Shown piece by piece: positions 1,409 through 20,200 of a stretch of DNA of 32,000 nt (position 1 is the stretch's first letter; each line of letters begins with the position of its first letter). The stretch is from contig NZ_CP042911.1 of the NCBI RefSeq assembly GCF_008065095.1, positions 2,430,001 through 2,462,000 of the forward strand. The letters run 5' to 3'. Position numbers and translations under genes: made by a program. Origin of the DNA: Gemmata obscuriglobus. Lineage in GTDB: Bacteria; Planctomycetota; Planctomycetia; Gemmatales; Gemmataceae. Below the pieces are notes generated by a model. It worked only from the letters and a program-made list of their open reading frames with translations, was not told the DNA's origin and did no database searches.

Positions 1409-1916
1409 CCCGGTTGCAAACCTGCGACCGGCGGCCGAACGTGACAAAAACGGAAGCGGTTCGGGCGATTTTTTCGGGCTTTAAGGGTTTTTAAATTGTC
1501 GGTCCGTGAGTAGGTTGTGCTAGCTCCCAAGTAATTGCTTGCCGCGGGCGGAACGGAGCGTGCCGTTCCGTCGGCGCGAGTTGTACGTTCGGTGCGGCCG
1601 CAATTCCCTCCCGTCTCGGGTTTTGCTCGCCCCGAACTCCGATAGTGTGGGCTCCGCCGGGTGTGCCGGCTGTAACGATTCGTTCCGGCGATCGGGTTGT
1701 GTTTTTGGTTCGCTCGACGACGCCCGAAATCCCCCTTACTTGGGCGTTCCACCCGCGCGCCGATCCAGGTTATCGTTTCAGCGGTCGATACGTCCCTGCG
1801 GGTTCGTCCGTGGGCGAGTAACGGCGCACGCGGCGATTCCCGACCCGGCCCGCTACCGGCAGGTGGCTGCGGACTCGCTCGACGACCGCGACCGAATCGG
1901 ACCTTTTGTAGACAGG

Positions 1917-2765
1917 ATGCTCGTTACCATGTCGCGACTCCGCCGCTATCGCCCGGACGTAGTCCAGTCCCCGCTGGAAACGTACCTGCGCGAGATCAAC
2001 GAAACGGCCCTGCTCACCGCCGATCAGGAGAAGTCGCTGGCCCGCGCCATCGCCCAGGGGGACACCGAAGCCCGCGACCAGATGGTGCGCGCCAACCTGC
2101 GCCTGGTGGTGAACATCGCCCGCGGCTACACCGGCAAAGGGCTCGCCCTCCAGGACCTCATCGAGGAGGGGAACCTCGGCCTGCTGCGGGCGGTCGAGGG
2201 GTTCGACCCGACGATGAACACGCGGTTCAGCACCTACGCCAGCTACTGGATCAAGCAGAGCATCAAGCGGGCGCTGGTGAACACCGCGAAGACGATCCGC
2301 ATCCCCGCCTACATGGTCGAGCTGCTCGCCAAGTGGCGCCGGGCCACCAACAAGCTCAGCGACGAGCTGGGCCGCCCGCCCACCCACGAGGAGGTGGGCA
2401 AGCTGCTCGGGCTGCCCAAGAAGAAGCTCGCGATCATCAAGAAGGCCATCCGGGTGTACAACGCCGCCCCGCAGGCGGACCAGGGCGATCAGGGGTGGAG
2501 TATCGAAGAGATGCTCATGGACAACCGCGCCAAGACGCCCGACACCGAGATGGTCGAGACCGACGACCTCAAGCAGGTGCTGATCCTGCTGGAGAAGATG
2601 GACCAGCGCGAGGCGACCGTGCTGCGGATGCGGTTCGGGCTCAACGACGAGGAGCCCAAGACCCTCAAGGAGATCGGCGAGTGCCTGGGCCTCACCCGCG
2701 AGCGGGTGCGCCAGATCGAGGGCGAGGCGCTGGCCAAGCTCGGCGAGGACCTGAGCGGCGAGTGA
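1917..2765 (+). CDS. Sigma-70 family RNA polymerase sigma factor (RpoD/RpoS-like regions 1.2-4, no region 1.1)
   Basis: Region 2 reads DLIEEGNLGLLRAVEGFDPTMNTRFSTYASYWIKQSIKRAL. Region 3 reads IRIPAYMVELLAKWRR. The region 4 HTH reads LKEIGECLGLTRERVRQIEGEALAKL. The ORF opens at 1539, but that N-terminal stretch looks non-coding. In-frame ATGs at 1917 and 1929 give a 278-282 aa protein; which one is used is uncertain. Confidence 0.85.
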   Translation: MLVTMSRLRRYRPDVVQSPLETYLREINETALLTADQEKSLARAIAQGDTEARDQMVRANLRLVVNIARGYTGKGLALQDLIEEGNLGLLRAVEGFDPTMNTRFSTYASYWIKQSIKRALVNTAKTIRIPAYMVELLAKWRRATNKLSDELGRPPTHEEVGKLLGLPKKKLAIIKKAIRVYNAAPQADQGDQGWSIEEMLMDNRAKTPDTEMVETDDLKQVLILLEKMDQREATVLRMRFGLNDEEPKTLKEIGECLGLTRERVRQIEGEALAKLGEDLSGE

Positions 2766-3888: not shown

Positions 3889-4806
3889 CAGCGCCGCGGC
3901 CACTTCGCCCGCCAGCCGGGCGTTGGCCACGATCAGCGCCCGGTTCGCGGCCAGGGTGCGCCCGCCGCTCAGGGCCGCGAGGCGCGACAGCAGGAACGGC
4001 GTCACCTTCGCGCCGGTCACGCCCGCGGCCCCCGCCTCGCGGCTCGCCTCGGCGAGCCACCGGTCGAACTCCCCGGCGGGCACCGCGACCTCCGCGGGGC
4101 ACGGCTGCGCGAGAACGACCCCCGCACCGCCCATGCGCACGTGCGCCGTGAACAGGGCGGCGGCTTCGCCCGGCGCATCGACCCGGGCGGACACCGGCAG
4201 CGGCGGGGCGTGGTCGCCCACATAGAACGCCGGGAACGCGTCCGTGCGGTAACCGACCACCGGCACGCCGAGCGTCTCAAGGATCTCGATCGTGCGCGGC
4301 AGGTGGAGTATGCTCTTCGCCCCGCTGCACACCACCAGCACCGGCGTGCGCGCCAGTTCGGTGAGGTCCGCGGAGATGTCGAACGGCTCCGCCTCCCGGT
4401 GCGCGCCCCCGAGCCCGCCGGTGGCGAACACGCGGACGCCCGCGGCGTGCGCGAGCGCCATCGTGGCGGAAACCGTGGTCGCGGCGTGGCGCCCGAGCGC
4501 GACCGCGGCGCCGAGGTCGCGCCGGCTCGCCTTTTGCACGCCCGAGCGGGTCGCGAGTTCTTCGAGCTGGGCGCCCGAGAGGCCCACGGTGGGCGCCCCG
4601 CCGAGAACCGCGATCGTCGCCGGCGTCGCCCCCGCGGCGCGGCACGCGCCCTCGGCCGCGCGGGCCGTTTCGAGGTTGACCGGGCGGGGCAGCCCGTGAG
4701 CGATCAGCGTGGACTCGAGCGCGACCACCGGCCCGCCGGCCGCGACCGCCGCCCGGACCTCGTCGCTAACGGCTAACCATTCTGGAATCGTTTGCGTCTG
4801 GTGCAA
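3874..4806 (-). CDS. psuG: Pseudouridine-5'-phosphate glycosidase
   Basis: Resemblance to YeiN/PsuG runs along the full length. Matching stretches include PVVALESTLIAHGLP, ATIAVLGG, SRRDL, ATTVSATMALAHAAGVRVFATGGLGGAHR, FDISADLTEL..VVCSGAKSIL and TPFLLSRLAALSGG. Confidence 0.85.
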   Translation of the reverse strand: MHQTQTIPEWLAVSDEVRAAVAAGGPVVALESTLIAHGLPRPVNLETARAAEGACRAAGATPATIAVLGGAPTVGLSGAQLEELATRSGVQKASRRDLGAAVALGRHAATTVSATMALAHAAGVRVFATGGLGGAHREAEPFDISADLTELARTPVLVVCSGAKSILHLPRTIEILETLGVPVVGYRTDAFPAFYVGDHAPPLPVSARVDAPGEAAALFTAHVRMGGAGVVLAQPCPAEVAVPAGEFDRWLAEASREAGAAGVTGAKVTPFLLSRLAALSGGRTLAANRALIVANARLAGEVAAALSVAQ

Positions 4807-4840
4807 AGGCGTTCACCGGGCGAATTTGAAAAGGTCCGCA

Positions 4841-4869
4841 TCGACAGGCCGCGCGGAAGCACACATAAT
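4841..4869 (+). promoter_or_regulatory. Candidate sigma70-type promoter for the rhomboid gene
   Basis: TCGACA (4841-4846), a 17-nt spacer and CATAAT (4864-4869) each match consensus at 5/6 positions. The implied start site near 4876-4877 coincides with the in-frame ATG at 4877, so the mRNA may be leaderless. Confidence 0.35.
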
Positions 4870-6541
4870 GCCAGCTATGGAACCGGGACACGAGACCCAA
4901 ACGCCCGCGAGCGTCGACGAAACCCCCATGCCGATTCAGGTCGGGCTGGTGGTGCCGCCCGCCGCCGCGCCCGCGCCGGTTCCCGCGGCGCCGACCGCGG
5001 CCCTCGTTCTCCGCCAGATCGCGGCCGCCGCCGGGCCGTGGTTCCCGGCCCAGTTCGCGGCCGAAAGCGGCGTCCCGCGCGACAGCCTCGATGAGCCCCT
5101 GTCCGAGCTGCGGCTCGCGGGGCTGGTTCTGGCAACGGATTGGGTCCGCGGGGTGGGCCAGGGGTTCGCGCTGACGCCCGCCGGGAAGATCACCGCCGCG
5201 GACGCCGGGGCGCTGGAGCGCCTGAGCCAGGGGGTGCCGGCCGCGGCCGTCGCGGCGCAGGTCGCCCCGGCGGAGGACGAGGGGGCCGCGGAGGCGGCCG
5301 CGGCCGTCGCCCCGGCCGCCGGGGCCGAGGACGGCGTCTCGCGCCCGCCGGTCGTGGTGCCCGCCCTGCTGATGGCGAACGCGGTGTGGTTCTTCATCTG
5401 CGCGGTGTGGGGCATCCGCTGGGGGCTGACGCTCTCGCGCAGCTTGAGCGAGGGGCACCCGGAGGTGCTGCACCGGTTCGGCGCGGTCAACGGGCTGGAC
5501 CTGCTCGCGGGCGAGTGGTGGCGGCTGTTCACGTGCTGCTTCGTCCACGTCGGCGCCCTGCACCTGTTGGGGAACCTGTTCGCGCTCGCGATGATGGGGC
5601 CGCTGGCGGAGCTGCTCTGGGGCCGCTGGCGGCTGCTGCTCATCTACACGATCTCGGGCCTCGCCGGCAGCGCGCTGGCGATGGCGCTCGAGCCCAACGC
5701 GCTGCTCGCGGGCGCGTCCGGGGCCATCTGGGGCGTGCAGATGTCGCTGTTCGTGTGGCTGTACGCGTTCCGCGACCGGCTCCCCACGGACGTCGCGGCC
5801 GACTGGTTCCGGCGGCTGATGGTGGTGTTCCTGCTGAACGGGGCGGTGAGCTTCCTGCCGAACGTGAGCTGGGAGGGGCACCTCGGCGGCGGGCTGGCCG
5901 GGCTGCTGACCGCCGGGCTGCTGAACGCGGCGCGGCTCGGGGACCGCCCGCGCCGGCTGGGGGCGTGGCTGCTGCTGACGATGCTGCCGGCGCTGTGCGT
6001 GGCCGGCGTGGCCGGCGCGATGGGGGCGGAGGGGCTCCCGGGCTGGCGGAAGCTCCGGCAGCAGCTCGCGGCCGAGCGCAGTGTGGCGGAGGGCGGGGAG
6101 CGGCTGACCGCCGCGCACGAGACCTACGTCCGCCAGATCGGGCCGCGGCTGGTGCGCCTGATGCCGGCCGGCCCGAACAGCATCACGAGGGTCGGCGGCA
6201 CGTTCCTGAACCTGCTGCCCGAGGAGCGCGAGCTGCTGGCCCTGCGCCGCTCCCCGGACGCGACGCCGCAGCAGCGAGCGGCGGCCCGCGCGAAGGTGTT
6301 GGCGCTCAAGGCCGTCGCCGAGGAGCTGGCCGCGGCGACGCCGCGCGAGCCGGTCGGCGCGCCGCCGCTGGACGAGCAGTTCGCGCGAATGGGCCGGTTC
6401 GCCACCGCGCAGGCGGCGGCGCTCGAGTGGCTGCTCGTGCTCGACGGAAGCGGGAGCGGCCCGGCCCGGTCACTCGTGTGGGCCGCCTGGGCGAAGACGC
6501 GGCTGGAATCGCACCAACTGTGGCTCGAACTGACCAAGTGA
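4868..6541 (+). CDS. Rhomboid-family intramembrane serine protease with N-terminal cytoplasmic domain and long C-terminal extension
   Basis: The rhomboid core reads WWRLFTCCFVHVGALHLLGNLFAL, with the catalytic Ser motif GASGAIWG and the His motif EGHLGGGLAGLL. The ORF track start at 4709 overlaps the divergent psuG. In-frame ATGs at 4868 and 4877 are more plausible starts. Confidence 0.8.
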   Translation: MPAMEPGHETQTPASVDETPMPIQVGLVVPPAAAPAPVPAAPTAALVLRQIAAAAGPWFPAQFAAESGVPRDSLDEPLSELRLAGLVLATDWVRGVGQGFALTPAGKITAADAGALERLSQGVPAAAVAAQVAPAEDEGAAEAAAAVAPAAGAEDGVSRPPVVVPALLMANAVWFFICAVWGIRWGLTLSRSLSEGHPEVLHRFGAVNGLDLLAGEWWRLFTCCFVHVGALHLLGNLFALAMMGPLAELLWGRWRLLLIYTISGLAGSALAMALEPNALLAGASGAIWGVQMSLFVWLYAFRDRLPTDVAADWFRRLMVVFLLNGAVSFLPNVSWEGHLGGGLAGLLTAGLLNAARLGDRPRRLGAWLLLTMLPALCVAGVAGAMGAEGLPGWRKLRQQLAAERSVAEGGERLTAAHETYVRQIGPRLVRLMPAGPNSITRVGGTFLNLLPEERELLALRRSPDATPQQRAAARAKVLALKAVAEELAAATPREPVGAPPLDEQFARMGRFATAQAAALEWLLVLDGSGSGPARSLVWAAWAKTRLESHQLWLELTK

Positions 6542-8147: not shown

Positions 8148-8965
8148 TTCGCTCGCCCGGTCGGCCACGTGTACCCGCGCGGGTCCATCGCCCGCCACGC
8201 CTTCCCCATCTGCGCCCACGCGCCGCCCCAGAAGCGCCGGAACGTCAACCCGCCGGCCCGCAGCGCCCGCCGGTGCCCCGCCCAGATCGCCACCGTCACC
8301 CCGGCGAACAGCACCCGCTGAACCCCCATCGTGAGCGCGCGGAGCGCGCGCCCGCGGTTGCGGTGAATGATCGCGAGCCGCTCGCACTGGAACCGCAGGT
8401 GCGGCACCTCGTCCCGCAAGATCTGGTGACAGATGCGGCGCAGCACCGCGGAGCCCGTCGCGCGCCGCACCGCCGCGTAGTAGAGCATCGCGTGGACCTC
8501 CACCATGACGACCACCGTCGTCCACACCTCCATTCGCAACCGCAGGTGGCGGAACAGCCGGAAGATCGAGTCGCCCCAGTCGCGGCCCTTCCGCGGCACG
8601 CCGGCGAGGTCGAGGAACCGGCCGAGCATTTCCCCGTGGCGCTGCTCCTCCGCGATGAACCGCTTGATCGCTTCGACGTAAGCGGGGTCGTAGGTCTGCG
8701 CGGCGTGCCGCTCGGCCGCCCGCGTCAGCCGCGTCCCGTCGGACGTTTCGCCGAGCTGCCACGCCCGCAGCGATTCGATGATCTCGGCCAGCTCCTCGCG
8801 CGTTGCACCGGCGCCCGCGCCCCAGGGAATCGGCATGAGGTTGGTCGCGTTATGCTCGAAGTACGCGACCCACTCCTCGGACGTCCACACGACCGGTTTC
8901 ACGGGCACGGCGGTCGCGGCGTCTTCGGTACTCAGGCCCAGAGCTTCCAGCATTGCACTTCGCAT
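8144..8965 (-). CDS. Ferritin-like diiron-carboxylate domain protein, function unknown
   Basis: Two ExxH motifs are present, EEQRH and DEVPH. Intervening conserved Glu residues (QLGE, VEVH) fit the E / ExxH / E / ExxH four-helix-bundle ligand pattern. A GGAG SD lies 7 nt upstream of the ATG. Confidence 0.7.
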   Translation of the reverse strand: MRSAMLEALGLSTEDAATAVPVKPVVWTSEEWVAYFEHNATNLMPIPWGAGAGATREELAEIIESLRAWQLGETSDGTRLTRAAERHAAQTYDPAYVEAIKRFIAEEQRHGEMLGRFLDLAGVPRKGRDWGDSIFRLFRHLRLRMEVWTTVVVMVEVHAMLYYAAVRRATGSAVLRRICHQILRDEVPHLRFQCERLAIIHRNRGRALRALTMGVQRVLFAGVTVAIWAGHRRALRAGGLTFRRFWGGAWAQMGKAWRAMDPRGYTWPTGRAN

Positions 8966-8986: not shown

Positions 8987-9013
8987 AGAATACTTTGTGA
9001 TGCAAAGTTAAAG
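8987..9013 (-). promoter_or_regulatory. Palindromic operator-like site (copy A) next to a -10-like TATTCT, upstream of the ferritin-like gene
   Basis: The palindrome is ACTTTG-TGATG-CAAAGT (8992-9008). The plus-strand context is GCAGAATACTTTGTGATGCAAAGTTAAAG, nearly identical to copy B at 10784-10811. On the minus strand a TATTCT abuts the palindrome; the -35 is poor. Confidence 0.45.
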
Positions 9014-10752: not shown

Positions 10753-10785
10753 TCGCTCGTCACCCGTCAGAGGGAAGTTGGCGGC

Positions 10786-10815
10786 AGTATACTTTGCACC
10801 GCAAAGTAAAGTCAA
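10786..10815 (-). promoter_or_regulatory. Sigma70-like promoter with embedded palindromic operator (copy B)
   Basis: The minus strand reads TTGACT (10815-10810), an 18-nt spacer and TATACT (10791-10786). The spacer holds the perfect palindrome ACTTTGC-ACC-GCAAAGT (10791-10807). It lies about 35 nt upstream of the ATG at 10752. Confidence 0.55.
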
Positions 10816-11503
10816 GGGTGAAGGTGGAACAACTCGTCCGGAGGCAGAGCCGTTCCGCATCTCACCTACGCCGCGGACGAGCGCGGTGTCATCGGATTGG
10901 TATGGGATCGCGCCAGACGCACCGCCGTAGGAGCCAACCCGCGCGACGTGCGCGGCCCACGTCCGCTCGGGTGATTCGAGCGAGATTGGGCCGCGAGGCT
11001 GTCACGGAGATTACAGCATGGCGCGCGGGACCGACGGGGGCTCGACGGGACATTCGCGGGCGGTTCGCTGCCGATTCGCTACCCGGTCGCTGGTGCGTTG
11101 CTACCACCGAATCGTGCCCGCAAAACACAAATAACGCACCCGTTCGCCCGGAGGGTGCTTCCGGAATCATTGCGGGATACGTGCCGCAAAGTGTGATTGT
11201 GAAATCGATTGCGGCGGTTATGGCCCGACGTGTCGTTTCACCACTGTGGACGGGAATCGGTGTCACGGGCTCTGTTCGAGGTCGCGCGAGTTTCCGGAAC
11301 TGCCGCGCGAGACGAAATAGGGTGCGGAAGTGCCGGTGCTGCTGGCAGTATGACGCGAGGTCACCGTGAATACGCCGCGTCGCTACGCTTCGACCACGGG
11401 GCACGGGAAGGGGAGGGCGGACATGATCGCGCATTTCCTGCATCAGTTTGCCGGCCGCCGGGCAAACAATGACGGAACCGGTCGTTCGCCGAAGGGAGCT
11501 GCG

Positions 11504-14500
11504 ATGTCCGCAACCGCCGTCCGCAGAGTCGTCTCACGGCTTCAGCCCGGGGGCGCACTCACCGACGCCGAACTCGTCCTCGCGATCGGGGCGCCGGGCA
11601 CGAGCCGCGAAGCCGCGTTCGCGGAACTGGTGGGGCGCTATGGGCCGATGGTGCTGGGTGTGTGCCGCCGGGTACTCGGCGACGCGCACGCGGCCGAGGA
11701 CGCGTTTCAGGCGGTGTTCCTGGTACTCGCCCGGAAGGCGGAACTGGTTCGGCCGCCCGGAGCGGTCGGGGGCTGGCTGTACGGCGTTGCGGTGCGCACG
11801 GCCCGGAAGGCGAAGGTCGCTGCCGCTCGGCGGCGGAGGTACGAGATGGCGGTCATCACTCCGGCGAACGTCGATGGCCGGTGCGTCGCCGGTGCCCTCG
11901 ATCACACCGAGCTGCGAGCGGTGATCGACGAAGAACTGGCCGCGCTGCCCGAAACGCACCGGGCGGCGATCGTCCTGTGCGACCTCCAGGGCAAGACCCG
12001 CGCGGAAGCGGCGTGCGAGTTGGGCCGGGCCGAAGGGACCGTGGCGTCGTGGCTCGCGCGCGGCCGCAAGGCCCTGGCCGTGCGGCTCGCGCGGCGAGGC
12101 GTGGCGCTGCCCGCCGCGGGGCTTCTGGCGGTCGCGGTGCCTTTCGTTGTGTCGGCCGAACTGAGTTCCGTTGCGGTCGGCACTTTAGCCGGTCGCGGCG
12201 CGTCACCGTTCGTTCTCGCACTCGCGGAGAGCGTGATGAAAAGCTTCGCGTTCGCTCCGAAGAAGCTGTTCGCTGGTGCGTGTGCCGTCGGGGCGCTACT
12301 GGCGGCCGTTGCGACGGCCGCCGCGTGGCCGGGGCGCCCGCCCGTTCCGGACCTGCCCGCGACACCGCCCACTGCCGTTGCCGCGCCGGTGCCCAAGCCG
12401 GAGGCGGGCTCCAACGGCTTCCTCGACCACGACGGGCGCATTCATTCGGTGTCCTACGCCCCGGGTGGGAAGGCGTTCGTTTCGGTCGGTGGCGGGCGCG
12501 CGGTCGTGTGGGAGGCCGGAACGCAGAAGCGGCGGTTCAGTGTGCCGGCCGAGTTCGCGGCGTTTTCGGCCGATGGTAAGTCGCTGTTCGTACTGGCCGA
12601 GGACGAGTTTCGCACGCTCGATGCGGGCACCGGCAAGGTGCAGGCCACGAAGAAGCGTGACAAACCCGAGGCGATCTACCGGGGTACCACCGCAGCGTTC
12701 ACCGCCGACGGATCGAAGTGGGTCGAGTTCGACGGCAACGTGCATCACCTCCGCGGCGATTTCAAGGGCGGGGCGCCGGCGCTCGCGGGGCAAAGGGTGT
12801 CCACCCGGGACGAGTACAAGCGGATCTTCGGGCGGGGCGGCGCGTTCAGTCCGGACGGAACGCGGTTCGCCGGCATCCACTGGAAGCACGCCCCTGAAGA
12901 TGCGAACGGTGTCCTGAGCGTCTGGGACGCCGTGACCGGTGTGCGGACCGGGGCACTTGCGCTTCCGAACTCCGAGGCTCCGGCCTTTTCGTTCGCCTGG
13001 TCGCCTGACGGGACGGAATTGGCGGTCGGTCGGTACAGCGTGGAAGTGTACGACGCAAAGACTCTCAAACTGTCGCGCCGGTTCGACGCGGGCTGGGAAG
13101 AAATGACCGGGCGGTTCAGTGCGCTGGCGTGGTCGCCAGACGGCAAACGCCTGGCTGCCGGGCGCCGGGTCGAACGCAGCACCAGCCCGCCCGGTCGGAC
13201 CGGCGGCGTCATCACGGGAGATACCGCGAACGTCCAACTGCTCGACGCGCGGACGGGGGCCGAGTTGCAGTGGTTCGATGGGTTCCCTGACAATTTGCCG
13301 GTGATGTCGCTCGCGTTTAGCCCCGACGGTAAACGGATCGTGTGCGGGGCCGGCAACTTCCCGGATGTGATCGGTTTCGACCCGCCGGCGGGGGCGAAGA
13401 CGCTGCGCGTACTGAACGTCGAAGAGCCGAGCGTGCGGGGCATGCGCGGCGTCGCGTTCGGCCCGGACGGCTCGCGCTACATCGTCTTCCGCGACGGCAT
13501 CATCGAGGTGTTCGACGCCGCGACCGGAAAACCTCTGTACACGGCCGGGGGCGAAGCGGGGTGCTTACTCGCGGACAACGGTCTCGTTGTGCTGGAACCC
13601 CGGCTGATCTCGCTGTACGACGCACGGGGCCACCGGACCGCCGGGCGGCGTCCCCCGAACACGAAGGCCAAGTGGGAGCATGCGGTGTTCAGCCCGGACG
13701 GTAAGCGGTACGCCCTTCATTTCGGCCAGAACGTGCGGGTGTACGACATCGCGACCGGCGCCGAAGCGTTCTGGCTGGAAGGGCAGCTCGAAGCGTCTGG
13801 CATGTCCTCCGGACACCAGATCGCGCCCACGGTCCAGTTCACCGACGACGGGAAAGGGCTCATCGTGTCGCGGGTGAAGCTCACCGCCGACGGGCCGCTC
13901 GGGGCGGGTGTGTGGTCGGCGACGGACGGCAAACGGCTCGACACGTTCGTGCCCAACGGGAAGGAACAGATGGAGTGGGCCGTTCCCGCACCGTCGGGCG
14001 GTACGGTCGCGATCTCGTTCGGAACGCGTGTCGAAATCTGGGCGACCGGAAACGGTGCGAAGAACCCGGTTCACCGCTTTGCATCGTCGTGGCGGGTGGA
14101 CTCGCTCGCGTACTCGCCGGACGGAACGCGGATCGCGGTTGGCAGTCGGAAGGAAGTGGGTGGCGACGGCGGGAAGGCGAACCGCGTTCGGGAAACGGTG
14201 ATTCAAGTGTTCAACGCGACCACCGGGAAAGAGCAGCACCGGTTCGCGGAGCGAGCCGTGGGGAGGGACTGCGCCGCGCTGCACCTGGCATTCGCCCCCA
14301 ACGGCAACCAGCTCCTGGCCGGGTTCAGTGCGGCTGTGGGACCGGGCGGGGCGGTCAAGCTGTACGACGTGACGCCGCCTGCTCCCGCGGTAGCACAGGA
14401 TTGGGCCGAAGTGGCCACTCTGACCGACCTCAAGGGGAATGTGAACGGGGTGGCAGTGTCGCCCGACGGTAAGCTGTTGGCCGCAACCGATCACATGGGG

Positions 14501-15388
14501 ATGATTGCGGTTTGGGACGCCAAAACGCGCAAGGTGCTCGCCACGGTGAACCGGGCCACGAAGGGCGCGTACGGGGTGGCGTTTTCCCGGGACAACAAGC
14601 ACCTTGCGGTCGGCAGCGACACGGGCGTTCTGGGCTACGAACTGCCGGGTACGAAGCTCGCGGCGTGGAGCGAGAACAACGTCAAATTCGGTCGGGTGAG
14701 CGAGGTGGCGTTTTCGCCGGACGGCACCCGCCTCGCTGCGACCGACGGGTATGTGACCCGGGTCCGCTCGCTCGCCGGCAAGGAACTGTGGTCGTTCCAG
14801 TCGCACCCGCGCCCGAAAGGTGAGTCGGTGGCGCGGCGTATCGCGCCCGCGTGGTCGCCGGATGGGAAGTGGCTCGCCGTTCCGTCCAAGGGCCAAGACT
14901 CGGGTGCGTGGGGCGTCAGCCTCAGCCCCAAAGGTGAGGGGGCACCCACGCGAGTGCTGACCGGTCCGAAGGCGCCCGTGACCTGCGTGGCGTGGGCGCC
15001 GGACGGCTCGTTCTTCGTGGCAGGCGATGAAGACGGAACCGTGATCGCGTGGGACGCAAAGACCGACAAGGAGATCTGGCGACGGACGTTCCACGGGCGC
15101 GACATGCCGGCCGGTCGGGTGCACGCACTGGCCGTGTCGCCCGCGGACGGCACCGTCGCGGCAGCCGTGGACATGCTCTCTGGCATGTGCCCCCAGCGCG
15201 TGGTTCTGCTCGCACCGCGGGACGGCGAAGCGGTGGCGTCGGGGCTGTGGCGGATGGCACCGGTGACTTCGGTTGCGTGGGCGCCGGACGGGCGGTCGTT
15301 CGTGGCCGGGTACGGCGTGTCCGAGTTCGAGCGGCTCCCGGCGGGCGGCGGTGCGGGCGCGGTGGTGGTGTGGGGGCGCAAGCCGTGA
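11504..15388 (+). CDS. ECF-type sigma factor fused to a TM segment and a very large WD40/PD40-like beta-propeller region
   Basis: The sigma2 region reads FAELVGRYGPMVLGVCRRVLGDAHAAEDAFQAVFLVLARKA. The sigma4 region reads LPETHRAAIVLCDLQGKTRAEAACELGRAEGTVASWLARGRKAL. The hydrophobic helix is LFAGACAVGALLAAVATAAAW (nt ~12265-12327), followed by a Pro-rich linker. About 19 repeats then carry [FWY][SA]PDG[KTS]x[LFI][AV]. The start at 11504 has GAAGGGAG upstream; the ATG at 11423 (GGGAGGG upstream) is an alternative. Confidence 0.85.
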   Translation: MSATAVRRVVSRLQPGGALTDAELVLAIGAPGTSREAAFAELVGRYGPMVLGVCRRVLGDAHAAEDAFQAVFLVLARKAELVRPPGAVGGWLYGVAVRTARKAKVAAARRRRYEMAVITPANVDGRCVAGALDHTELRAVIDEELAALPETHRAAIVLCDLQGKTRAEAACELGRAEGTVASWLARGRKALAVRLARRGVALPAAGLLAVAVPFVVSAELSSVAVGTLAGRGASPFVLALAESVMKSFAFAPKKLFAGACAVGALLAAVATAAAWPGRPPVPDLPATPPTAVAAPVPKPEAGSNGFLDHDGRIHSVSYAPGGKAFVSVGGGRAVVWEAGTQKRRFSVPAEFAAFSADGKSLFVLAEDEFRTLDAGTGKVQATKKRDKPEAIYRGTTAAFTADGSKWVEFDGNVHHLRGDFKGGAPALAGQRVSTRDEYKRIFGRGGAFSPDGTRFAGIHWKHAPEDANGVLSVWDAVTGVRTGALALPNSEAPAFSFAWSPDGTELAVGRYSVEVYDAKTLKLSRRFDAGWEEMTGRFSALAWSPDGKRLAAGRRVERSTSPPGRTGGVITGDTANVQLLDARTGAELQWFDGFPDNLPVMSLAFSPDGKRIVCGAGNFPDVIGFDPPAGAKTLRVLNVEEPSVRGMRGVAFGPDGSRYIVFRDGIIEVFDAATGKPLYTAGGEAGCLLADNGLVVLEPRLISLYDARGHRTAGRRPPNTKAKWEHAVFSPDGKRYALHFGQNVRVYDIATGAEAFWLEGQLEASGMSSGHQIAPTVQFTDDGKGLIVSRVKLTADGPLGAGVWSATDGKRLDTFVPNGKEQMEWAVPAPSGGTVAISFGTRVEIWATGNGAKNPVHRFASSWRVDSLAYSPDGTRIAVGSRKEVGGDGGKANRVRETVIQVFNATTGKEQHRFAERAVGRDCAALHLAFAPNGNQLLAGFSAAVGPGGAVKLYDVTPPAPAVAQDWAEVATLTDLKGNVNGVAVSPDGKLLAATDHMGMIAVWDAKTRKVLATVNRATKGAYGVAFSRDNKHLAVGSDTGVLGYELPGTKLAAWSENNVKFGRVSEVAFSPDGTRLAATDGYVTRVRSLAGKELWSFQSHPRPKGESVARRIAPAWSPDGKWLAVPSKGQDSGAWGVSLSPKGEGAPTRVLTGPKAPVTCVAWAPDGSFFVAGDEDGTVIAWDAKTDKEIWRRTFHGRDMPAGRVHALAVSPADGTVAAAVDMLSGMCPQRVVLLAPRDGEAVASGLWRMAPVTSVAWAPDGRSFVAGYGVSEFERLPAGGGAGAVVVWGRKP

Positions 15389-15460: not shown

Positions 15461-16363
15461 ATGATCCCCATCGATTTCACGGGTAAAGTCGCGCTGGTTA
15501 CCGGCGTGGGTGACAACAAGAGCTTCGCGTGGTACATCGGCAAGGCGCTCCAGGCGGCCGGGGCGAAGGTGGTGCTGGCGGTCCACCCGCGGGTGCTGGA
15601 CATCGTGCAGAACCTGCTGCGCACCACCAGCGACCCCGACGACGTGGCGGCCCGGAAGCTGCCGGACGGCTCGGACTTCGCGCCGGTGAAGCTGGTCCGC
15701 TGCGACGCCAGCTACGACACGATGGCCGACGTGAAGCTGGAGGAGATGCCGGACGCGCAGCGGCGGCACTACTCGAAGTACACCGAGGACTACAGCATCA
15801 CCGGCGCGGTGAACGCGGTGGCCCAGGAGTTCGGCGGTATCGACATCCTGATCCACTCGGTGGCGTTCAGCCGGGAGATCACGAAGTCGCTGCTCGAGAC
15901 GAGCCGCAAGGCGTACCACGAGGCGATGGGGATCAGCGCGTACTCGCTGGTGAGCATGGTCCGCGCGGCGGCGCCGCACATGGCGAACCGGCCGGGCGGT
16001 GCGAGCGTGGTGGGCCTCACCTACGTGGCGGGCGAGAAGGTGGTGCCGCACTACGGCGGCGGGATGGGGACGTGCAAGGCGGCGCTCCAGATGGACGCCA
16101 AGCAGCTCGCGTGGTTCGTTGGGGACAAGAACGTCCGGGTGAACCTGATCTCGGCCGGCCCCTACGGGAGCCGGGCGGCGCGGGCGATCAACAAGGACTT
16201 CGACAAGCTGATCCAGCACGCCGCGGACCACTCGCCGCTGCGCCGCGCGATCGAGCCGGAGGAGGTGGCGAACACGACGCTGTACCTGTGCAGCCCGCTG
16301 GCCAGCGCGGTGACGGGGCAGATCATGTACGTGGACTGCGGGTACAACGTGATGGGCACGTGA
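15461..16363 (+). CDS. fabI: Enoyl-[acyl-carrier-protein] reductase (NADH), plant/chlamydia-like type
   Basis: The N-terminus has the Rossmann motif GKVALVTGVGDNKSFAWYIGKAL. The active-site region is HYGGGMGTCKAALQMD, followed by ISAGPYGSRAA and the C-terminal GQIMYVDCGYNVMG. A GAGG SD lies 9 nt upstream. Confidence 0.9.
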   Translation: MIPIDFTGKVALVTGVGDNKSFAWYIGKALQAAGAKVVLAVHPRVLDIVQNLLRTTSDPDDVAARKLPDGSDFAPVKLVRCDASYDTMADVKLEEMPDAQRRHYSKYTEDYSITGAVNAVAQEFGGIDILIHSVAFSREITKSLLETSRKAYHEAMGISAYSLVSMVRAAAPHMANRPGGASVVGLTYVAGEKVVPHYGGGMGTCKAALQMDAKQLAWFVGDKNVRVNLISAGPYGSRAARAINKDFDKLIQHAADHSPLRRAIEPEEVANTTLYLCSPLASAVTGQIMYVDCGYNVMGT

Positions 16364-16537
16364 TCGTAATGCCGAACCCGATCGTCGCACGTTCCATGAC
16401 CGGAACCCGCGCGATCGAGTCAGGAACGGTCGGACGCCGCCCCGCCGCGGGGCGCGTCACATGCCGCCGTTAGGCGCTTGCAATGCGCCGCTCCGTGCCT
16501 CATTCTGCACCTCTGGCACCCGCACGGAGCCCACCCC

Positions 16538-19500
16538 ATGCTGCGCTCGCTGCTTTCGTTTTGCGCGCTGCTCGCCGGCGCGTCGCTCGCCCGGGCCGAC
16601 GGCCTCACGCCCGAAGAGGCGGCGAAGCGGTTCAAGCTGCCCGCGGGGTTCTCGGCCCGGCTCGTCGCGTCCGAGCCCACGGTCCGACAGCCTACGAGCA
16701 TCAGCTTCGACGCGCGCGGCCGCATGTGGGTGCTCCAGTACCTCCAGTACCCGAACTACGCAGGACTGAAGGCCGTCAAGCAGGACCAATACCTGCGCAC
16801 CGTCTGGGACAAGGTGCCCGAGCCGCCGCCCAGGGGGCCGAAGGGGCTCGACAAGATCACCATCCTCTCGGACCCGGACGCGAGCGGCGTGTTCACGAGG
16901 TCCAAGGACTTCGTGACCGGGCTCAACATCGCCAGCGGGTTCTGCATCGGCAACGGCGGGGTGTACGTGGCGCAGCCGCCGTACCTGCTGTTCTACCCCG
17001 ACAAGAACGAGGACGACGTTCCCGACGGCGACCCGGAGGTGCTGCTCTCGGGGTTCGGGATGGACGACACGCACTCGCTCGCGAACTCGCTCCAGTGGGG
17101 GCCGGACGGCTGGCTCTACGGCGCCGCCGGCAGCACCAGCACCTGCAAGATCGCGAACCCGGCGAACCCCAAAGAGGTGGTCGAGTTTCAGCAAGGCGTC
17201 TGGCGCTACCACCCGAAGACAAAGCGGTTCGAGCTGTTCAGTGAAGGCGGCGGGAACACCTACGGCCTCGACTTCGACAAGAACGGGCAGGCGATCGCCG
17301 GAACCAACTGGGGCGGGTTCGCGTGCCTGCACCAGATGCAGGGCGCCTACCACGTGAAGGGCTTCAGCAAGCACGGCCCGCTTCACAACCCGTACACCTA
17401 CGGCTACTTCGAGCACGTCCCGTACACCGGCTTCAAGGGCGGTCACGTCACCTGCGGCGGGGTGCTGTACGAGGCCGACGTGTACCCCGAGCCGTACCGG
17501 GGGCAGTACATCGCGGCGAACATCCTGTCGAACGCGGTCTACTGGCACAAGCTCGAGCCGGGCAAGTCGTCGTTCCAGGCACGGCACGGCGGCGAACTGA
17601 TGGAAACCGACGACACCCACTTTCGGCCCGTGGACCTGCTGCTCGGTCCGGACGGGTGCGTGTACGTCGTGGACTTCTACGACCGCCGCGCCGCGCACCT
17701 GGACCCGGTCGACAACTGGGACAAGGCCACCGGGCGCATCTACCGCATCGAGTACGGGGGTGCCACGAAACGCGAGCCGTTCGACCTGCGCAAGAAGACC
17801 GCCGCGGAGCTGGCCGAACTGCTGAAGCACCCGAACATGTGGTGGCGCAAGGAGGCCCGGCGCCTGCTGTCCGAGCGCCCCGACGCCGCGGCCGCGCACC
17901 CCAAACTGCGCAAGTGGCTGCTGACCGAGAAGGGACCGCTCGCGCTGGAGGCGCTGTGGGCGCTAGCCGCTTCGGGCGGGTGGGCGGAGGGCGACTTCGA
18001 CAACGTCGGCGAGCACCCCAACGAGTACGTGCGCGCCTGGATGGTTCGCCTCATCGCGGACGAGGTGGGCGCGTCGGAGGCGACGCCGGCGGTGCTCGCG
18101 AACGTCGCGCGCACGGAGAAGAGCCACGCGGTGGTGGCGCAGATCGCGTGCAGCGCCCGCCGGTTCGCCCCGCAGCAGGAGGCCGCCGTCATCGCGGCCG
18201 TGATGGACAACCCGATCCTCGGTGACGACCCGCAACTGCCGCTGCTCGTGTGGTGGGGGCTGGAGGACAGCAACCGGCGCGATACGACCGACACGGTGCG
18301 GTTCCCGTACCCGGTTGGGCTGAGCCCGCCACTTAGGGCTTTTTTCAACGAGCGGGTCGCGCGCCGCTTCATGTCCGGGAACATCACCCGCGGCACCGAG
18401 CGCATCGGCGCCTTGTTCAATCTTGTGACGGACTACGGCGACGACATCGAACCGGTACTCCGGGGCGTCGCGACGGCGCTCCAGGCCAAGCCGCTCGACG
18501 CGGTGCCGCCGGCGCTGCGTCAGCCGCTCGCCGAACTTCGCAAGCAGCGCCCGAAAGACTTGCTGGTGCTGGAGGTGCTGGCGCGGATGGGGGACGAGGC
18601 GGCCCGCACGGCCCTCCGGGGGCTCGTGACCGACGGGGCGGTAGGCGACGCCGGTCGGCTGAGGGCCGTGGCGCTACTGCGCGACGTGCGCGACCCGAAA
18701 GCCGAACCCCTGTTCCTCGATCAGTTCGCCGCCGCGAAGTCCGATGCGCTCCGGGTCGGGCTGCTCGGCGGGTTGGAGGCGTTCGACGGCCCCGCAGTCG
18801 GTGCGGCGGTGCTGGAGGGGTACGCCGGCTACTCGCCCGCGGTGAAGAAGCGGGCGGTTCAACTGCTCCTGACTCGGCCGAGTTGGGCGCTGGCGCTCTT
18901 CAAGCGACTTGACGCCAGCACGTTCCCCAAGGCCGACCTGCCGGTTGAGGGCGCGCGGGTCGCCGCCGCACTTGGCGATAAAGGCGTCACGATTCTGGTG
19001 GAGAAGCACTTCGGGAAACTGGCCCCGGCGACCGCGGGCGAGAAACAGGCTCGCATTGCTTGGCTCAGCACCGCGCTCGGGCGCACCAAGTCCGGCGATC
19101 CGGTGAGGGGGCAGGTGCTGTTCACGAAGCACTGTGCCGCGTGCCATCAGTTACATGGAGCGGGTGGCCAGGTAGGACCGGACCTCACCACCGCGGACCG
19201 CAAGAACCGCGGGTACATGCTGGCGCAGATCGTGGACCCGAGCGGCTACATCCGGCCCGAGTACGTCGTCCACACCGTACTGACGAACGACGACCGCAAG
19301 CTGTCGGGCATCGTGACGGAGCAGGGCGGGGCGATCGTGGTGACCAACTACGCCAACGAGCAGGTCACGAAGGTTACGATCGCGAAGGCGGACGTGGCGG
19401 ACCTGAAGCCGTCGCCGGTGTCGATGATGCCCGAAAAGCTGCTCGACTCGCTTACGGAACCGGAGATCGCCGACCTGTTCGCGTACCTGTCAGCGGACGC

Positions 19501-20200
19501 GCCCAAGGTGGCCGTTCCTCGGAAGGACGGGCCGGCGGTGAAGAGGCTCCGGCTCGCTCTCGTGTCCGGGTCGTTCGAGTACAAATCGGACGAATCGCTC
19601 GGGGCGTTCCAGAAGCACCTGGAGGCGAACTACGCGGTCGAGTGCGTCCTCATTTCGGCCAAGGCCGAAAAGGACCGCGCGCTCGCCGGGCTGGAGCAGT
19701 TGGAGAAGTGCGACGCTGCGCTGTTCTTCACCCGGCGGCTCCAGATCGAGGGCGCGTCGTTGGATCATGTGAAGGCGTTCGTCAAATCCGGTAAACCGCT
19801 CGTGGGCGTCCGAACCGCCAGCCACGGGTTCCAGAAGTGGCTCGAAATGGACGCGGAGGTGTTCGGGGGCAACTACAAAGGGCACTTCGGGGCCGGCGTC
19901 GCGGACGTGAAGCCGGTGGAGAAGGCGAAGGAACACCCTATCTTGAAGGGGGTGAAGTCGTTTAAGACGAACGGGAGCCTGTACAAGAACCCCAACGTCG
20001 CGACCGATGTTAACGTTCTGCTCCAGGGGACTATGGGCAAGGAATCGGAACCCGTGGCGTGGACCCGTGAGAAGGACGGGCGCCGCGTGTTTTACACCTC
20101 CCTGGGCCACCCGGACGACTTCAAGGACGAGAACTTCGTCCGCCTGCTCGTTAACGGGCTAACTTGGGCGACGAAGGGCGAGTTGAAGCCGGCGAAGTGA
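16538..20200 (+). CDS. PVC-type heme-binding CxxCH protein: dehydrogenase-like propeller, HEAT-like repeats, cytochrome c, C-terminal ThuA-like domain
   Basis: The signal peptide is MLRSLLSFCALLAGASLARA. The N-terminal F.LP.GF...VASEP motif is followed by DGWLYG and GRIYRI propeller motifs, then a long helical repeat region. A single heme site CAACH lies at nt 19133-19147 (LFTKHCAACHQLHG.GG.VGPDL). The C-terminus, RVFYTSLGHPDDFKDENFVRLLVNGLTWA, is typical of ThuA. Confidence 0.85.
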   Translation: MLRSLLSFCALLAGASLARADGLTPEEAAKRFKLPAGFSARLVASEPTVRQPTSISFDARGRMWVLQYLQYPNYAGLKAVKQDQYLRTVWDKVPEPPPRGPKGLDKITILSDPDASGVFTRSKDFVTGLNIASGFCIGNGGVYVAQPPYLLFYPDKNEDDVPDGDPEVLLSGFGMDDTHSLANSLQWGPDGWLYGAAGSTSTCKIANPANPKEVVEFQQGVWRYHPKTKRFELFSEGGGNTYGLDFDKNGQAIAGTNWGGFACLHQMQGAYHVKGFSKHGPLHNPYTYGYFEHVPYTGFKGGHVTCGGVLYEADVYPEPYRGQYIAANILSNAVYWHKLEPGKSSFQARHGGELMETDDTHFRPVDLLLGPDGCVYVVDFYDRRAAHLDPVDNWDKATGRIYRIEYGGATKREPFDLRKKTAAELAELLKHPNMWWRKEARRLLSERPDAAAAHPKLRKWLLTEKGPLALEALWALAASGGWAEGDFDNVGEHPNEYVRAWMVRLIADEVGASEATPAVLANVARTEKSHAVVAQIACSARRFAPQQEAAVIAAVMDNPILGDDPQLPLLVWWGLEDSNRRDTTDTVRFPYPVGLSPPLRAFFNERVARRFMSGNITRGTERIGALFNLVTDYGDDIEPVLRGVATALQAKPLDAVPPALRQPLAELRKQRPKDLLVLEVLARMGDEAARTALRGLVTDGAVGDAGRLRAVALLRDVRDPKAEPLFLDQFAAAKSDALRVGLLGGLEAFDGPAVGAAVLEGYAGYSPAVKKRAVQLLLTRPSWALALFKRLDASTFPKADLPVEGARVAAALGDKGVTILVEKHFGKLAPATAGEKQARIAWLSTALGRTKSGDPVRGQVLFTKHCAACHQLHGAGGQVGPDLTTADRKNRGYMLAQIVDPSGYIRPEYVVHTVLTNDDRKLSGIVTEQGGAIVVTNYANEQVTKVTIAKADVADLKPSPVSMMPEKLLDSLTEPEIADLFAYLSADAPKVAVPRKDGPAVKRLRLALVSGSFEYKSDESLGAFQKHLEANYAVECVLISAKAEKDRALAGLEQLEKCDAALFFTRRLQIEGASLDHVKAFVKSGKPLVGVRTASHGFQKWLEMDAEVFGGNYKGHFGAGVADVKPVEKAKEHPILKGVKSFKTNGSLYKNPNVATDVNVLLQGTMGKESEPVAWTREKDGRRVFYTSLGHPDDFKDENFVRLLVNGLTWATKGELKPAK

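Follow-up and report, generated by a model that had tools for sequence, protein, structure and literature searches.

How could a sigma factor be held back and put to use when it is encoded in one chain with a membrane helix and a large array of β-propeller blades? The window analysed here, a stretch of 32,000 nucleotides from Gemmata obscuriglobus (contig NZ_CP042911.1, positions 2,430,001 to 2,462,000), contains such a gene, encoding WP_010046492.1. We propose, giving the idea roughly even chances of being right, that this protein belongs to ECF57 as a 'one-component' ECF sigma factor, anchored in the membrane by a single pass, and that its sigma domain would be released by intramembrane proteolysis upon sensing by its propellers. 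The gene, its parts and its flanks are as follows, with positions counted within the window.

10753..11503, no strand: upstream intergenic region of ~750 nt, between the sigma gene and a divergent gene (start 10752, minus strand)
11504..15388, + strand: whole gene for the ECF sigma / membrane anchor / propeller fusion WP_010046492.1, 1294 aa, stop codon at 15386-15388
11564..11875, + strand: sigma2 domain, aa 21-124 (Pfam Sigma70_r2 at aa 42-106, E 1.6e-10)
11903..12094, + strand: sigma4 domain, aa 134-197 (Pfam Sigma70_r4_2 at aa 140-191, E 2.2e-13)
12095..12265, + strand: juxtamembrane stretch, aa 198-254, conserved in the family
12266..12328, + strand: predicted single transmembrane helix LFAGACAVGALLAAVATAAAW, aa 255-275, Ala/Gly-rich, with KK just before it
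12329..12433, + strand: Pro-rich linker, aa 276-310, read from the sequence, of low information content and modelled as coil
12437..13423, + strand: blades 1-7, inferred propeller 1, aa 312-640 (HMM matches at 312, 348, 442, 493, 537 and 599 plus one blade-size gap)
13442..14407, + strand: blades 8-14, inferred propeller 2, aa 647-968, the most degenerate repeats (HMM, AlphaFold2, Foldseek)
14438..15385, + strand: blades 15-21, inferred propeller 3, aa 979-1294, the clearest WD40 matches (Pfam, HMM, AlphaFold2, Foldseek)
15461-16363: fabI, downstream of the sigma fusion gene

The N-terminal part, aa 21-197 overall, is an ECF sigma2/sigma4 module, as a preliminary description of this DNA had claimed for residues ~30-200. 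Pfam detects r2 and r4_2 only, without r1 or r3, which is the domain content of ECF (group 4) sigma factors, and with the NCBIfam model TIGR02937 (sigma70-ECF), whose cutoff is 42.9, the score is 58.5. Comparison with solved ECF sigmas by phmmer retrieved Mycobacterium tuberculosis SigE (1.5e-13), AlgU (1e-10) and Escherichia coli sigmaE (2e-9), each alignment covering aa 35-196 and with them both sigma domains. Foldseek matches to an AlphaFold2 model (pLDDT 81.8) were likewise solved ECF sigmas, and aa 21-120 are modelled as helices with a mean pLDDT of 86-95 per 10-residue block. Two cysteines stand out in an alignment of 110 family sequences: Cys54 (nt 11663-11665), located in the sigma2 motif 'GVCRRVL', is invariant and Cys159, located in the sigma4 motif 'VLCDL', is kept in at least 90%. 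As 'VLCD' is also present in sigma4 of M. tuberculosis SigE, Cys159 is not specific to the family.

ECF57, formerly ECF01-Gob, comprises planctomycete ECF sigmas with a WD40-rich C-terminal extension and has no characterised member (PMC7826278, PMC8999054). It was described by Jogler et al. 2012, Pinto & Mascher 2016 and Casas-Pastor et al. 2021 (PMC7826278) as well as in a review (PMC8999054); the literature gives ~5 copies per planctomycete genome, and the group has two conserved cysteines, one each in sigma2 and sigma4 (PMC8999054). WP_010046492.1 fits ECF57, an assignment made by published group traits rather than by a group HMM score: planctomycete origin, WD40 extension, Cys54 and Cys159, no anti-sigma gene and no conserved neighbourhood. 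There is no essential difference between the two, the organism being the group's name-giver and the sigma2/sigma4 core, WD40 extension, cysteines and presence of several paralogues per genome being shared. The published group description thus bears out the link to a Gemmata 'ECF01-Gob' group that had been made in the preliminary description, and the statement made there that no mechanism or ligand is experimentally established agrees with the literature. The fusion type is already described, it is abundant in planctomycetes, and WP_010046492.1 is no new kind of system. At E<=1e-30 the sigma-to-anchor module retrieves 11,443 representative proteins, with a conserved sigma-to-anchor cassette and a variable outer domain as the family pattern. 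New for this ECF57 member are one anchor helix instead of two, ~21 blades and a juxtamembrane stretch common to paralogues with other domains.

This juxtamembrane stretch opens with 'RRGVALPAAGL' and closes with an amphipathic helix, 'LAESVMKSF' (family consensus L.EGV.K.M). Its information content of 1.6-2.4 bits per column lies between that of the sigma domains (3-3.8) and that of the region after the anchor (at most 1.4, down to 0.3), and it is conserved among paralogues whose outer domains are unrelated. Across the family the segment between sigma4 and the anchor spans 45-70 residues, is Ala/Gly/Pro-rich and varies in length; in the AlphaFold2 model, aa 205-216 are a coil of pLDDT <50 and helices occupy 218-228 and 235-249. 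No Pfam match was found for aa 195-300 at E<=10, and the family profile of the stretch, compared with the PDB, returned no solved anti-sigma and one chance match (E 0.036). Fused sigma/anti-sigma proteins carry a FecR-type or zinc-finger domain between sigma4 and the helix, which is absent here, and one helix with the sigma domain inside and a sensor outside, which is predicted here. We infer that a built-in anti-sigma role may reside within the WP_010046492.1 chain, whose juxtamembrane stretch has no match among known anti-sigma domains. Neighbouring genes have no anti-sigma Pfam match, with unannotated ones scanned to E<=10, and an anti-sigma gene is also absent beside four relatives of WP_010046492.1, in agreement with what had been claimed for the flanks.

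In the proposed mechanism, the sigma2/sigma4 module and the juxtamembrane stretch would be cytoplasmic, one Ala/Gly-rich helix would span the membrane and ~1000 residues of WD40/PD40-type blades would form the input domain on the extracytoplasmic side. The anchored state would keep the sigma domain from productive use. Once an extracytoplasmic partner binds to the propellers or leaves them, the outer domain would be trimmed, after which an intramembrane protease would cut the anchor and the freed sigma fragment of ~27-30 kDa would join RNA polymerase. Ala and Gly make up 57% of the anchor (family median 42%), a composition that suits site-2 protease substrates. The model is patterned by analogy on IutY, released via Prc and RseP, and on the proposal made for SCO4117 (PMC8999054). 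IutY from Pseudomonas putida (ECF243) likewise has its sigma domain, one membrane helix and a domain outside the cytoplasm in one chain, but has a FecR-type anti-sigma part and a TonB-dependent receptor, whereas the Gemmata protein has propellers and no detectable anti-sigma domain or linked receptor gene. SCO4117 from Streptomyces coelicolor (ECF52), together with ECF48 and ECF53, likewise has an ECF sigma joined to membrane helices, Pro-rich sequence and a binding domain outside the cytoplasm, and proteolytic activation has been proposed; what sets these groups apart is an anti-sigma segment of the zinc-finger (ZAS-like) type and a domain that binds carbohydrate, neither of which Pfam detects in the Gemmata protein. 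Planctomycete Ser/Thr kinases and BlaR1/M56 proteins also carry WD40 arrays, in the kinases predicted to be periplasmic behind one helix (PMC11032199), but their cytoplasmic output is a kinase or metalloprotease domain and not a sigma domain. Counting against release are the lack of a protease gene consistently linked to the fusion gene across the relatives compared and a juxtamembrane stretch without a known anti-sigma domain. In the ECF57 literature consulted, proteolysis is reported for no member, nor are a released fragment, a ligand or a target promoter, and the review files the group under 'protein interaction / conformational change', stressing the two cysteines and not proteolysis (PMC8999054).

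It is also conceivable, though we regard it as unlikely, that the uncut sigma domain stays anchored and that a propeller signal, such as partner binding or oligomerisation, would change the cytoplasmic conformation, possibly via Cys54/Cys159, and recruit RNA polymerase near the membrane. ToxR/CadC-type regulators act while membrane-bound; however, we know of no sigma factor that acts in holoenzyme in this state, and, given the reach that sigma must have on RNA polymerase, a tether of ~55 residues is short. The Ala/Gly/Pro-rich stretch, 45-70 residues long and variable in length, could nonetheless be a flexible tether, and the missing linked protease gene, the strong conformational change under which ECF57 is filed with mention of its two cysteines (PMC8999054), and the conservation of both cysteines all favour action in place, as do the heavily invaginated membranes described for Gemmataceae (PMC8567305). 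Of the two cysteines, however, Cys159 is shared beyond the family, and IutY, the characterised fused sigma/anti-sigma, relies on proteolysis (PMC8999054). More doubtful still is a version in which sigma is never released and, tethered, brings RNA polymerase to DNA beside the invaginated membranes, the juxtamembrane helix (L.EGV.K.M) and Cys54/Cys159 forming a new built-in switch that replaces the anti-sigma. ECF57-type proteins rank among the most numerous Gemmataceae regulators, and to establish whether their sigma domain is released by proteolysis or acts in place would account for much of planctomycete signalling.

The release model places the propellers outside the cytoplasm, in line with the N-in/C-out topology that had been claimed and that is supported by predictions from hydropathy, Hessa dG, charge bias, conservation and AlphaFold2. 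The hydrophobic helix quoted in the preliminary description was recovered as aa 255-275, followed by the Pro-rich linker also described there. Its Kyte-Doolittle score is 2.09 and its summed Hessa dG +0.27 kcal/mol, AlphaFold2 places a helix at 251-273, and across the family hydropathy peaks nowhere but at aa 255-273. What had been overlooked is another hydrophobic stretch, aa 200-218, with a Kyte-Doolittle score of 2.19. As a membrane helix it was rejected: it contains two prolines, has a summed Hessa dG of +3.18 kcal/mol, lacks hydrophobicity when the family is averaged and is modelled by AlphaFold2 as low-confidence coil. Among 109 homologues, a summed dG <1.5 was found for the anchor segment in 89 and for the first segment in none; the Frigoriglobus orthologue reads 'LPARAPAGPA' in the latter, which is not hydrophobic. 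The predicted topology with cytoplasmic sigma and extracytoplasmic propellers therefore stands. Lysine and arginine residues number 2.68 preceding the anchor and 1.46 following it in the homologue comparison, and paralogues carry other domains behind the same anchor, some of them typically periplasmic (HlyD-like adaptor domains, Big_5, PSCyt2).

Two membrane passes or none would instead leave the propellers in the cytoplasm, as an intracellular scaffold for a partner protein controlling the sigma domain. Classical WD40 domains in other organisms are indeed mostly cytoplasmic, the hydropathy of aa 200-218 rivals that of the accepted helix, and the review mentions only protein-protein interaction for ECF57, without a membrane helix (PMC8999054). 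We nevertheless consider this arrangement very improbable given the properties of the first segment listed above, the lysines ahead of the second segment, which fit an N-in orientation, and two observations on related proteins: WD40 arrays of planctomycete single-pass kinases are predicted to be periplasmic (PMC11032199), and ECF sigmas of Tuwongella, a family mostly WD40-associated according to the authors, were found in Triton X-100 and SDS fractions, that is, with detergent-soluble proteins (PMC8567305).

The putative input domain matches WD40 (E 8.9e-42) and PD40 (E 4.4e-21) in Pfam. The AlphaFold2 model of the repeat region is all-beta with ~82 strands, and Foldseek matched it to tandem WD40 propellers. 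The strict blade motif of the preliminary description occurs 9 times and a looser motif 17 times, while a self-built blade HMM finds 18 repeats and three one-blade gaps. The blade array itself was correctly recognised, but the count of ~19 given for it should be raised to about 21, based on the HMM repeats plus gaps and the number of modelled strands. These ~21 WD40/PD40-like blades would most simply form three seven-bladed propellers, within the two or three that had been suggested. Blades 15-21 are 98.8% identical to those of G. algarum, and the next-best relatives of the C-terminal repeats are the WD40 arrays of planctomycete Ser/Thr kinases and BlaR1/M56 proteins.

Sigma module, helix, linker and repeats do form a single uninterrupted ORF as originally described, borne out by the reading frame, coding signal and Pfam matches. 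The open and coding-biased frame extends over 11366..15388 on the + strand; the ATG at 11504 is preceded by AAGGGA, a ribosome-binding-like sequence, and homologues also start there. In-frame GC3 is 0.75-0.88 for each 180-nt window of the gene, including the junction at 12100-12450 for which an assembly frameshift had been considered and none is indicated. The exact protein has accessions from three G. obscuriglobus genome records, the syntenic G. algarum orthologue has 1294 aa and 94.9% identity, and dozens of full-length sigma-WD40 fusions are present in other genomes and metagenomes. That a frameshift or assembly error fused a normal ECF sigma gene with an independent WD40 gene, or that the gene is decaying, is suggested by the Frigoriglobus tundricola orthologue, in which a 1-nt deletion within sigma4 has led to an annotation of two overlapping genes, 205 aa and 1162 aa long, but has next to no probability and is rejected for the G. 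obscuriglobus locus on the strength of the three records, the G. algarum orthologue, those other fusions and a coding signal that keeps to one frame throughout 11504-15388, the Frigoriglobus break itself sitting inside a sigma4 helix and not at a domain boundary and therefore looking like a lesion or sequencing error rather than an ancestral split. With its intact gene, its close orthologue and its origin in a cultivated strain, the locus is a reasonable model for mechanism work.

Judged from gene order, the fusion gene appears monocistronic, with no same-strand gene directly upstream and fabI separate downstream; the ~750 nt of non-coding DNA on one side and fabI on the other are as first described. 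The gene neighbours are not conserved: Frigoriglobus, a metagenome contig and Urbifossiella have other ones. A rhomboid gene lies 5 kb upstream of the fusion gene, its synteny limited to Gemmata. Within 10753..11503, no gene, RNA family (Rfam) or recognisable ECF promoter was found; ORFs there have a flat GC3 of 0.61-0.62, and the sole sigma70-like promoter site, 10815-10786, points toward the divergent gene. The region is 92-93% identical to its G. algarum counterpart except for a ~300-nt insertion in G. algarum.

Features of the window referred to in the text are:

1539-2765 (+), sigma-70 gene of group 1/2 type, full length (regions 1.2, 2, 3 and 4), adjoining rpsA
4709-6541 (+), rhomboid intramembrane protease gene, unusually long (610 aa), about 5 kb upstream of the sigma gene
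8993-9007, copy with one mismatch of the CTTTGC palindrome, upstream of a 273-aa gene
10786-10815 (-), promoter-like site of a divergent operon (197-aa protein and HTH_34 regulator), whose spacer holds the perfect palindrome CTTTGC-ACC-GCAAAG
11504-15388 (+), sigma gene
16478-20200 (+), 1240-aa protein in which DUF7133, HEAT, cytochrome c and ThuA domains are combined, second gene after the sigma gene (fabI being the first), a position kept in Gemmata algarum

The preliminary description had read the sigma gene as a single uninterrupted reading frame, and it is one: ORF 11366..15388 (+) contains no interruption, and its in-frame GC3 is 0.83 overall and 0.75-0.88 per 180-nt window, the junction at 12100-12450 included, in a window of 64-76% G+C. 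The start ATG at 11504 is preceded by an RBS-like AAGGGA and is where homologue N-termini begin; exact-sequence look-up of the resulting 1294-aa product returned WP_010046492.1 from Gemmata obscuriglobus. Accessions from three genome records of G. obscuriglobus carry the same protein (QEG27338.1, VTS04191.1 and AWM39568.1, the last with a longer start call), and G. algarum encodes an orthologue of equal length and 94.9% identity with its surroundings arranged alike (psuG, rhomboid, PALP enzyme, small divergent operon including the HTH_34 regulator, sigma gene, fabI, DUF7133/cytochrome c/ThuA gene); an assembly frameshift is therefore excluded. In Frigoriglobus tundricola CP053452.2 (locus L001, 8001-12049), the annotation divides the orthologue between two genes that overlap, one for a sigma factor of 205 aa and one for a WD40 protein of 1162 aa. 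This split is due to one base missing near 8570-8585, inside the sigma4 recognition helix (CGC-A-GGCG vs CGC-AAG-GCC in Gemmata), a gap that may reflect a sequencing error, pseudogene formation or a true split of the gene.

The N-terminal part is an ECF sigma2/sigma4 module, as had been claimed. Pfam places Sigma70_r2 at aa 42-106 (E 1.6e-10) and Sigma70_r4_2 at aa 140-191 (E 2.2e-13), with no Pfam match to sigma region 3 in the 1294-aa protein; the score against TIGR02937, the NCBIfam ECF superfamily model, exceeds the cutoff, and in a phmmer search of PDB sequences aa 35-196 aligned to M. tuberculosis SigE (1.5e-13), AlgU and E. coli sigmaE. AlphaFold2 modelling of aa 1-330 from an input alignment of 110 sequences (mean pLDDT 81.8) predicted both domains confidently, sigma2 at aa 21-124 and sigma4 at aa 134-197, and the structural neighbours of this model are solved ECF sigmas. 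As a hint of contacts between juxtamembrane helices and sigma domains, Foldseek rmsd values of 9-12 A to anti-sigma-bound ECF structures vs 22-24 A to polymerase-bound ones were given no weight. Cys54 occurs in all family sequences and Cys159 in at least 90% of them.

The C-terminal region (aa 301-1294) was modelled by AlphaFold2 as all-beta, with about 82 strands and a mean pLDDT of 82.0, and matches tandem WD40 propeller proteins, 2ymu being the top hit (E 1.6e-30). With a blade HMM derived from the protein's own sequence, 18 repeats and three one-blade gaps were found, which together form three groups of seven (aa 312-640, 647-968 and 979-1294). The earlier estimate of about 19 repeats in two or three propellers was thus close, but HMM and AlphaFold2 model together give 21 blades, from which we infer three seven-bladed propellers. 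The nearest relatives of this region are without exception sigma-WD40 fusions, 1300-1736 aa long, followed by kinase-WD40 and BlaR1/M56-WD40 proteins.

Sigma module and propellers had been described as separated by one hydrophobic helix. Such a helix at aa 255-275 (the anchor) holds, but a second stretch at aa 200-218 with about the same Kyte-Doolittle score (2.19 compared with 2.09) had been overlooked; were both to span the membrane, the propellers would lie in the cytoplasm. Hydropathy over 110 relatives has a single family-wide peak, at aa 255-273 (mean 2.04); the aa 200-218 stretch averages 0.8-1.24. Hessa values, added as a simple sum, are +0.27 kcal/mol for the aa 255-275 segment and +3.18 for the aa 200-218 segment, the latter due to two prolines; sums below 1.5 were obtained for 89 and 0 of 109 homologues, respectively. 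In the Frigoriglobus orthologue, whose sigma part is 73% identical, the counterpart of aa 200-218 reads LPARAPAGPAVV and that of the anchor stays hydrophobic, and AlphaFold2 predicts coil for aa 205-216 (pLDDT <50) and a helix for aa 251-273. Hydropathy, Hessa sums, Frigoriglobus sequence and AlphaFold2 coil argue against aa 200-218 as a membrane helix, and cytoplasmic propellers are very improbable. Lys+Arg counts average 2.68 over the 12 residues that precede the helix, compared with 1.46 behind it. Paralogues sharing the cassette have different domains beyond the anchor, including typically periplasmic ones (HlyD-like adaptor domains, Big_5, PSCyt2). In planctomycete single-pass kinases, WD40 arrays are predicted to be periplasmic (PMC11032199), and ECF sigma factors of Tuwongella immobilis, mostly WD40-associated according to the authors, were found in detergent (Triton X-100, SDS) fractions (PMC8567305). 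A single pass with the N-terminus inside and the C-terminus outside is the best prediction, in keeping with the cytoplasmic sigma and extracytoplasmic propellers originally proposed, and we hold identity and topology of the fusion jointly with high confidence.

Searching 1.84 billion proteins with the first 300 residues returned 11,443 representative proteins at E<=1e-30. For the best 150 of these, the match mostly covers about aa 1-295 and so takes in sigma module, juxtamembrane stretch and anchor. Alignment columns carry 3-3.8 bits in sigma2/sigma4 and 1.6-2.4 in juxtamembrane stretch and anchor; beyond the anchor, conservation falls from 1.4 to 0.3 bits. The juxtamembrane stretch is 45-70 residues long, rich in Ala, Gly and Pro, and has the family consensus RRGVALPAAGL ... 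VP..L...TV.AA ... S..V..L.EGV.K.M...K. WD40 arrays make up 22 of 73 genome-derived family extensions, the remainder being other domains; this survey covers paralogues, which the genome scan found instead of orthologues. The only match labelled as lying outside Planctomycetota is from a MAG labelled Lentisphaerae (L061, 5935-12681), where a family member of more than 2248 residues, a lower bound, continues past the locus end.

The group ECF01-Gob, to which the protein had been linked, has reportedly been renamed ECF57 by Pinto and Mascher in 2016. ECF01-Gob figures, in papers that cite Jogler et al. 2012, as one of the ECF groups with an added C-terminal domain. According to a review (PMC8999054), the extension of ECF57 proteins has WD40-like repeats, and a pair of conserved cysteines may connect sigma2 with sigma4; the group is classed under 'protein interaction' and is without any characterised member. 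Casas-Pastor et al. give 5.3 ECF57 copies per planctomycete genome (PMC7826278). Since all descriptive features of ECF57 examined are shared by the Gemmata protein, it is filed, by these features, as a predicted member of this known group, and the suggested link stands; G. obscuriglobus is the very species behind the group's first name. The observation is accurate and its interpretation sound, yet the finding is not novel, as this class of proteins is abundant and had been catalogued before. The remaining value of the locus is as a clean model for work on the activation mechanism.

The flanks are as described, with fabI as the next gene downstream and about 750 nt upstream (10753-11503) that lack coding signal, Rfam match and plus-strand promoter-like site. 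Rfam had no match in the entire window, and the only hit of the sigma70-type promoter scan was the divergent gene's site (10815-10786). A k-mer comparison of forward against reverse strand, over 300 nt of upstream sequence from each of 78 family genes, singled out only RBS-like GGAGG strings. The G. algarum upstream region, 92-93% identical throughout, is too close to tell conserved blocks; it is about 300 nt longer (L083, 7070-7368). Pfam scans of neighbouring genes, at E<=10 for unannotated ones, found no anti-sigma family, and the reported absence of a nearby anti-sigma gene extends to relatives: none was found beside those in Frigoriglobus, Urbifossiella and a metagenome contig, whose neighbours are unrelated to each other.

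The protein combines a complete ECF core with one anchor and a big propeller domain on the outside, and it has no anti-sigma partner. By analogy with IutY of Pseudomonas putida, a sigma/anti-sigma fusion cut by Prc and RseP, and with SCO4117 of Streptomyces coelicolor, regulated proteolysis would release the sigma domain; this could well be the activation step, a proposal we hold tentatively and regard as nearly balanced. The anchor, 57% Ala+Gly (family median 42%), is consistent with it. Against it count the lack of a protease gene consistently linked at the window locus and in four relatives, a juxtamembrane stretch that matches no known anti-sigma domain in Pfam (aa 195-300, E<=10) or, as a profile, in all PDB sequences, and the preference in the literature for a conformational switch. 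A tethered or conformational mechanism instead of cutting is rather unlikely in our estimate. The neighbourhoods of four relatives have nothing in common, protease or target genes included, except within Gemmata. The rhomboid gene is syntenic in G. algarum and not found beside relatives in other genera, so that no functional tie to the sigma gene is indicated.

The palindrome of the divergent operon could serve as an operator for the HTH_34 regulator, but its two matches are no more than chance (24/100 shuffles). The rpsA-adjacent sigma-70 sequence, read from the chosen TTG start, is absent from the protein collection, so that its annotated start probably differs.
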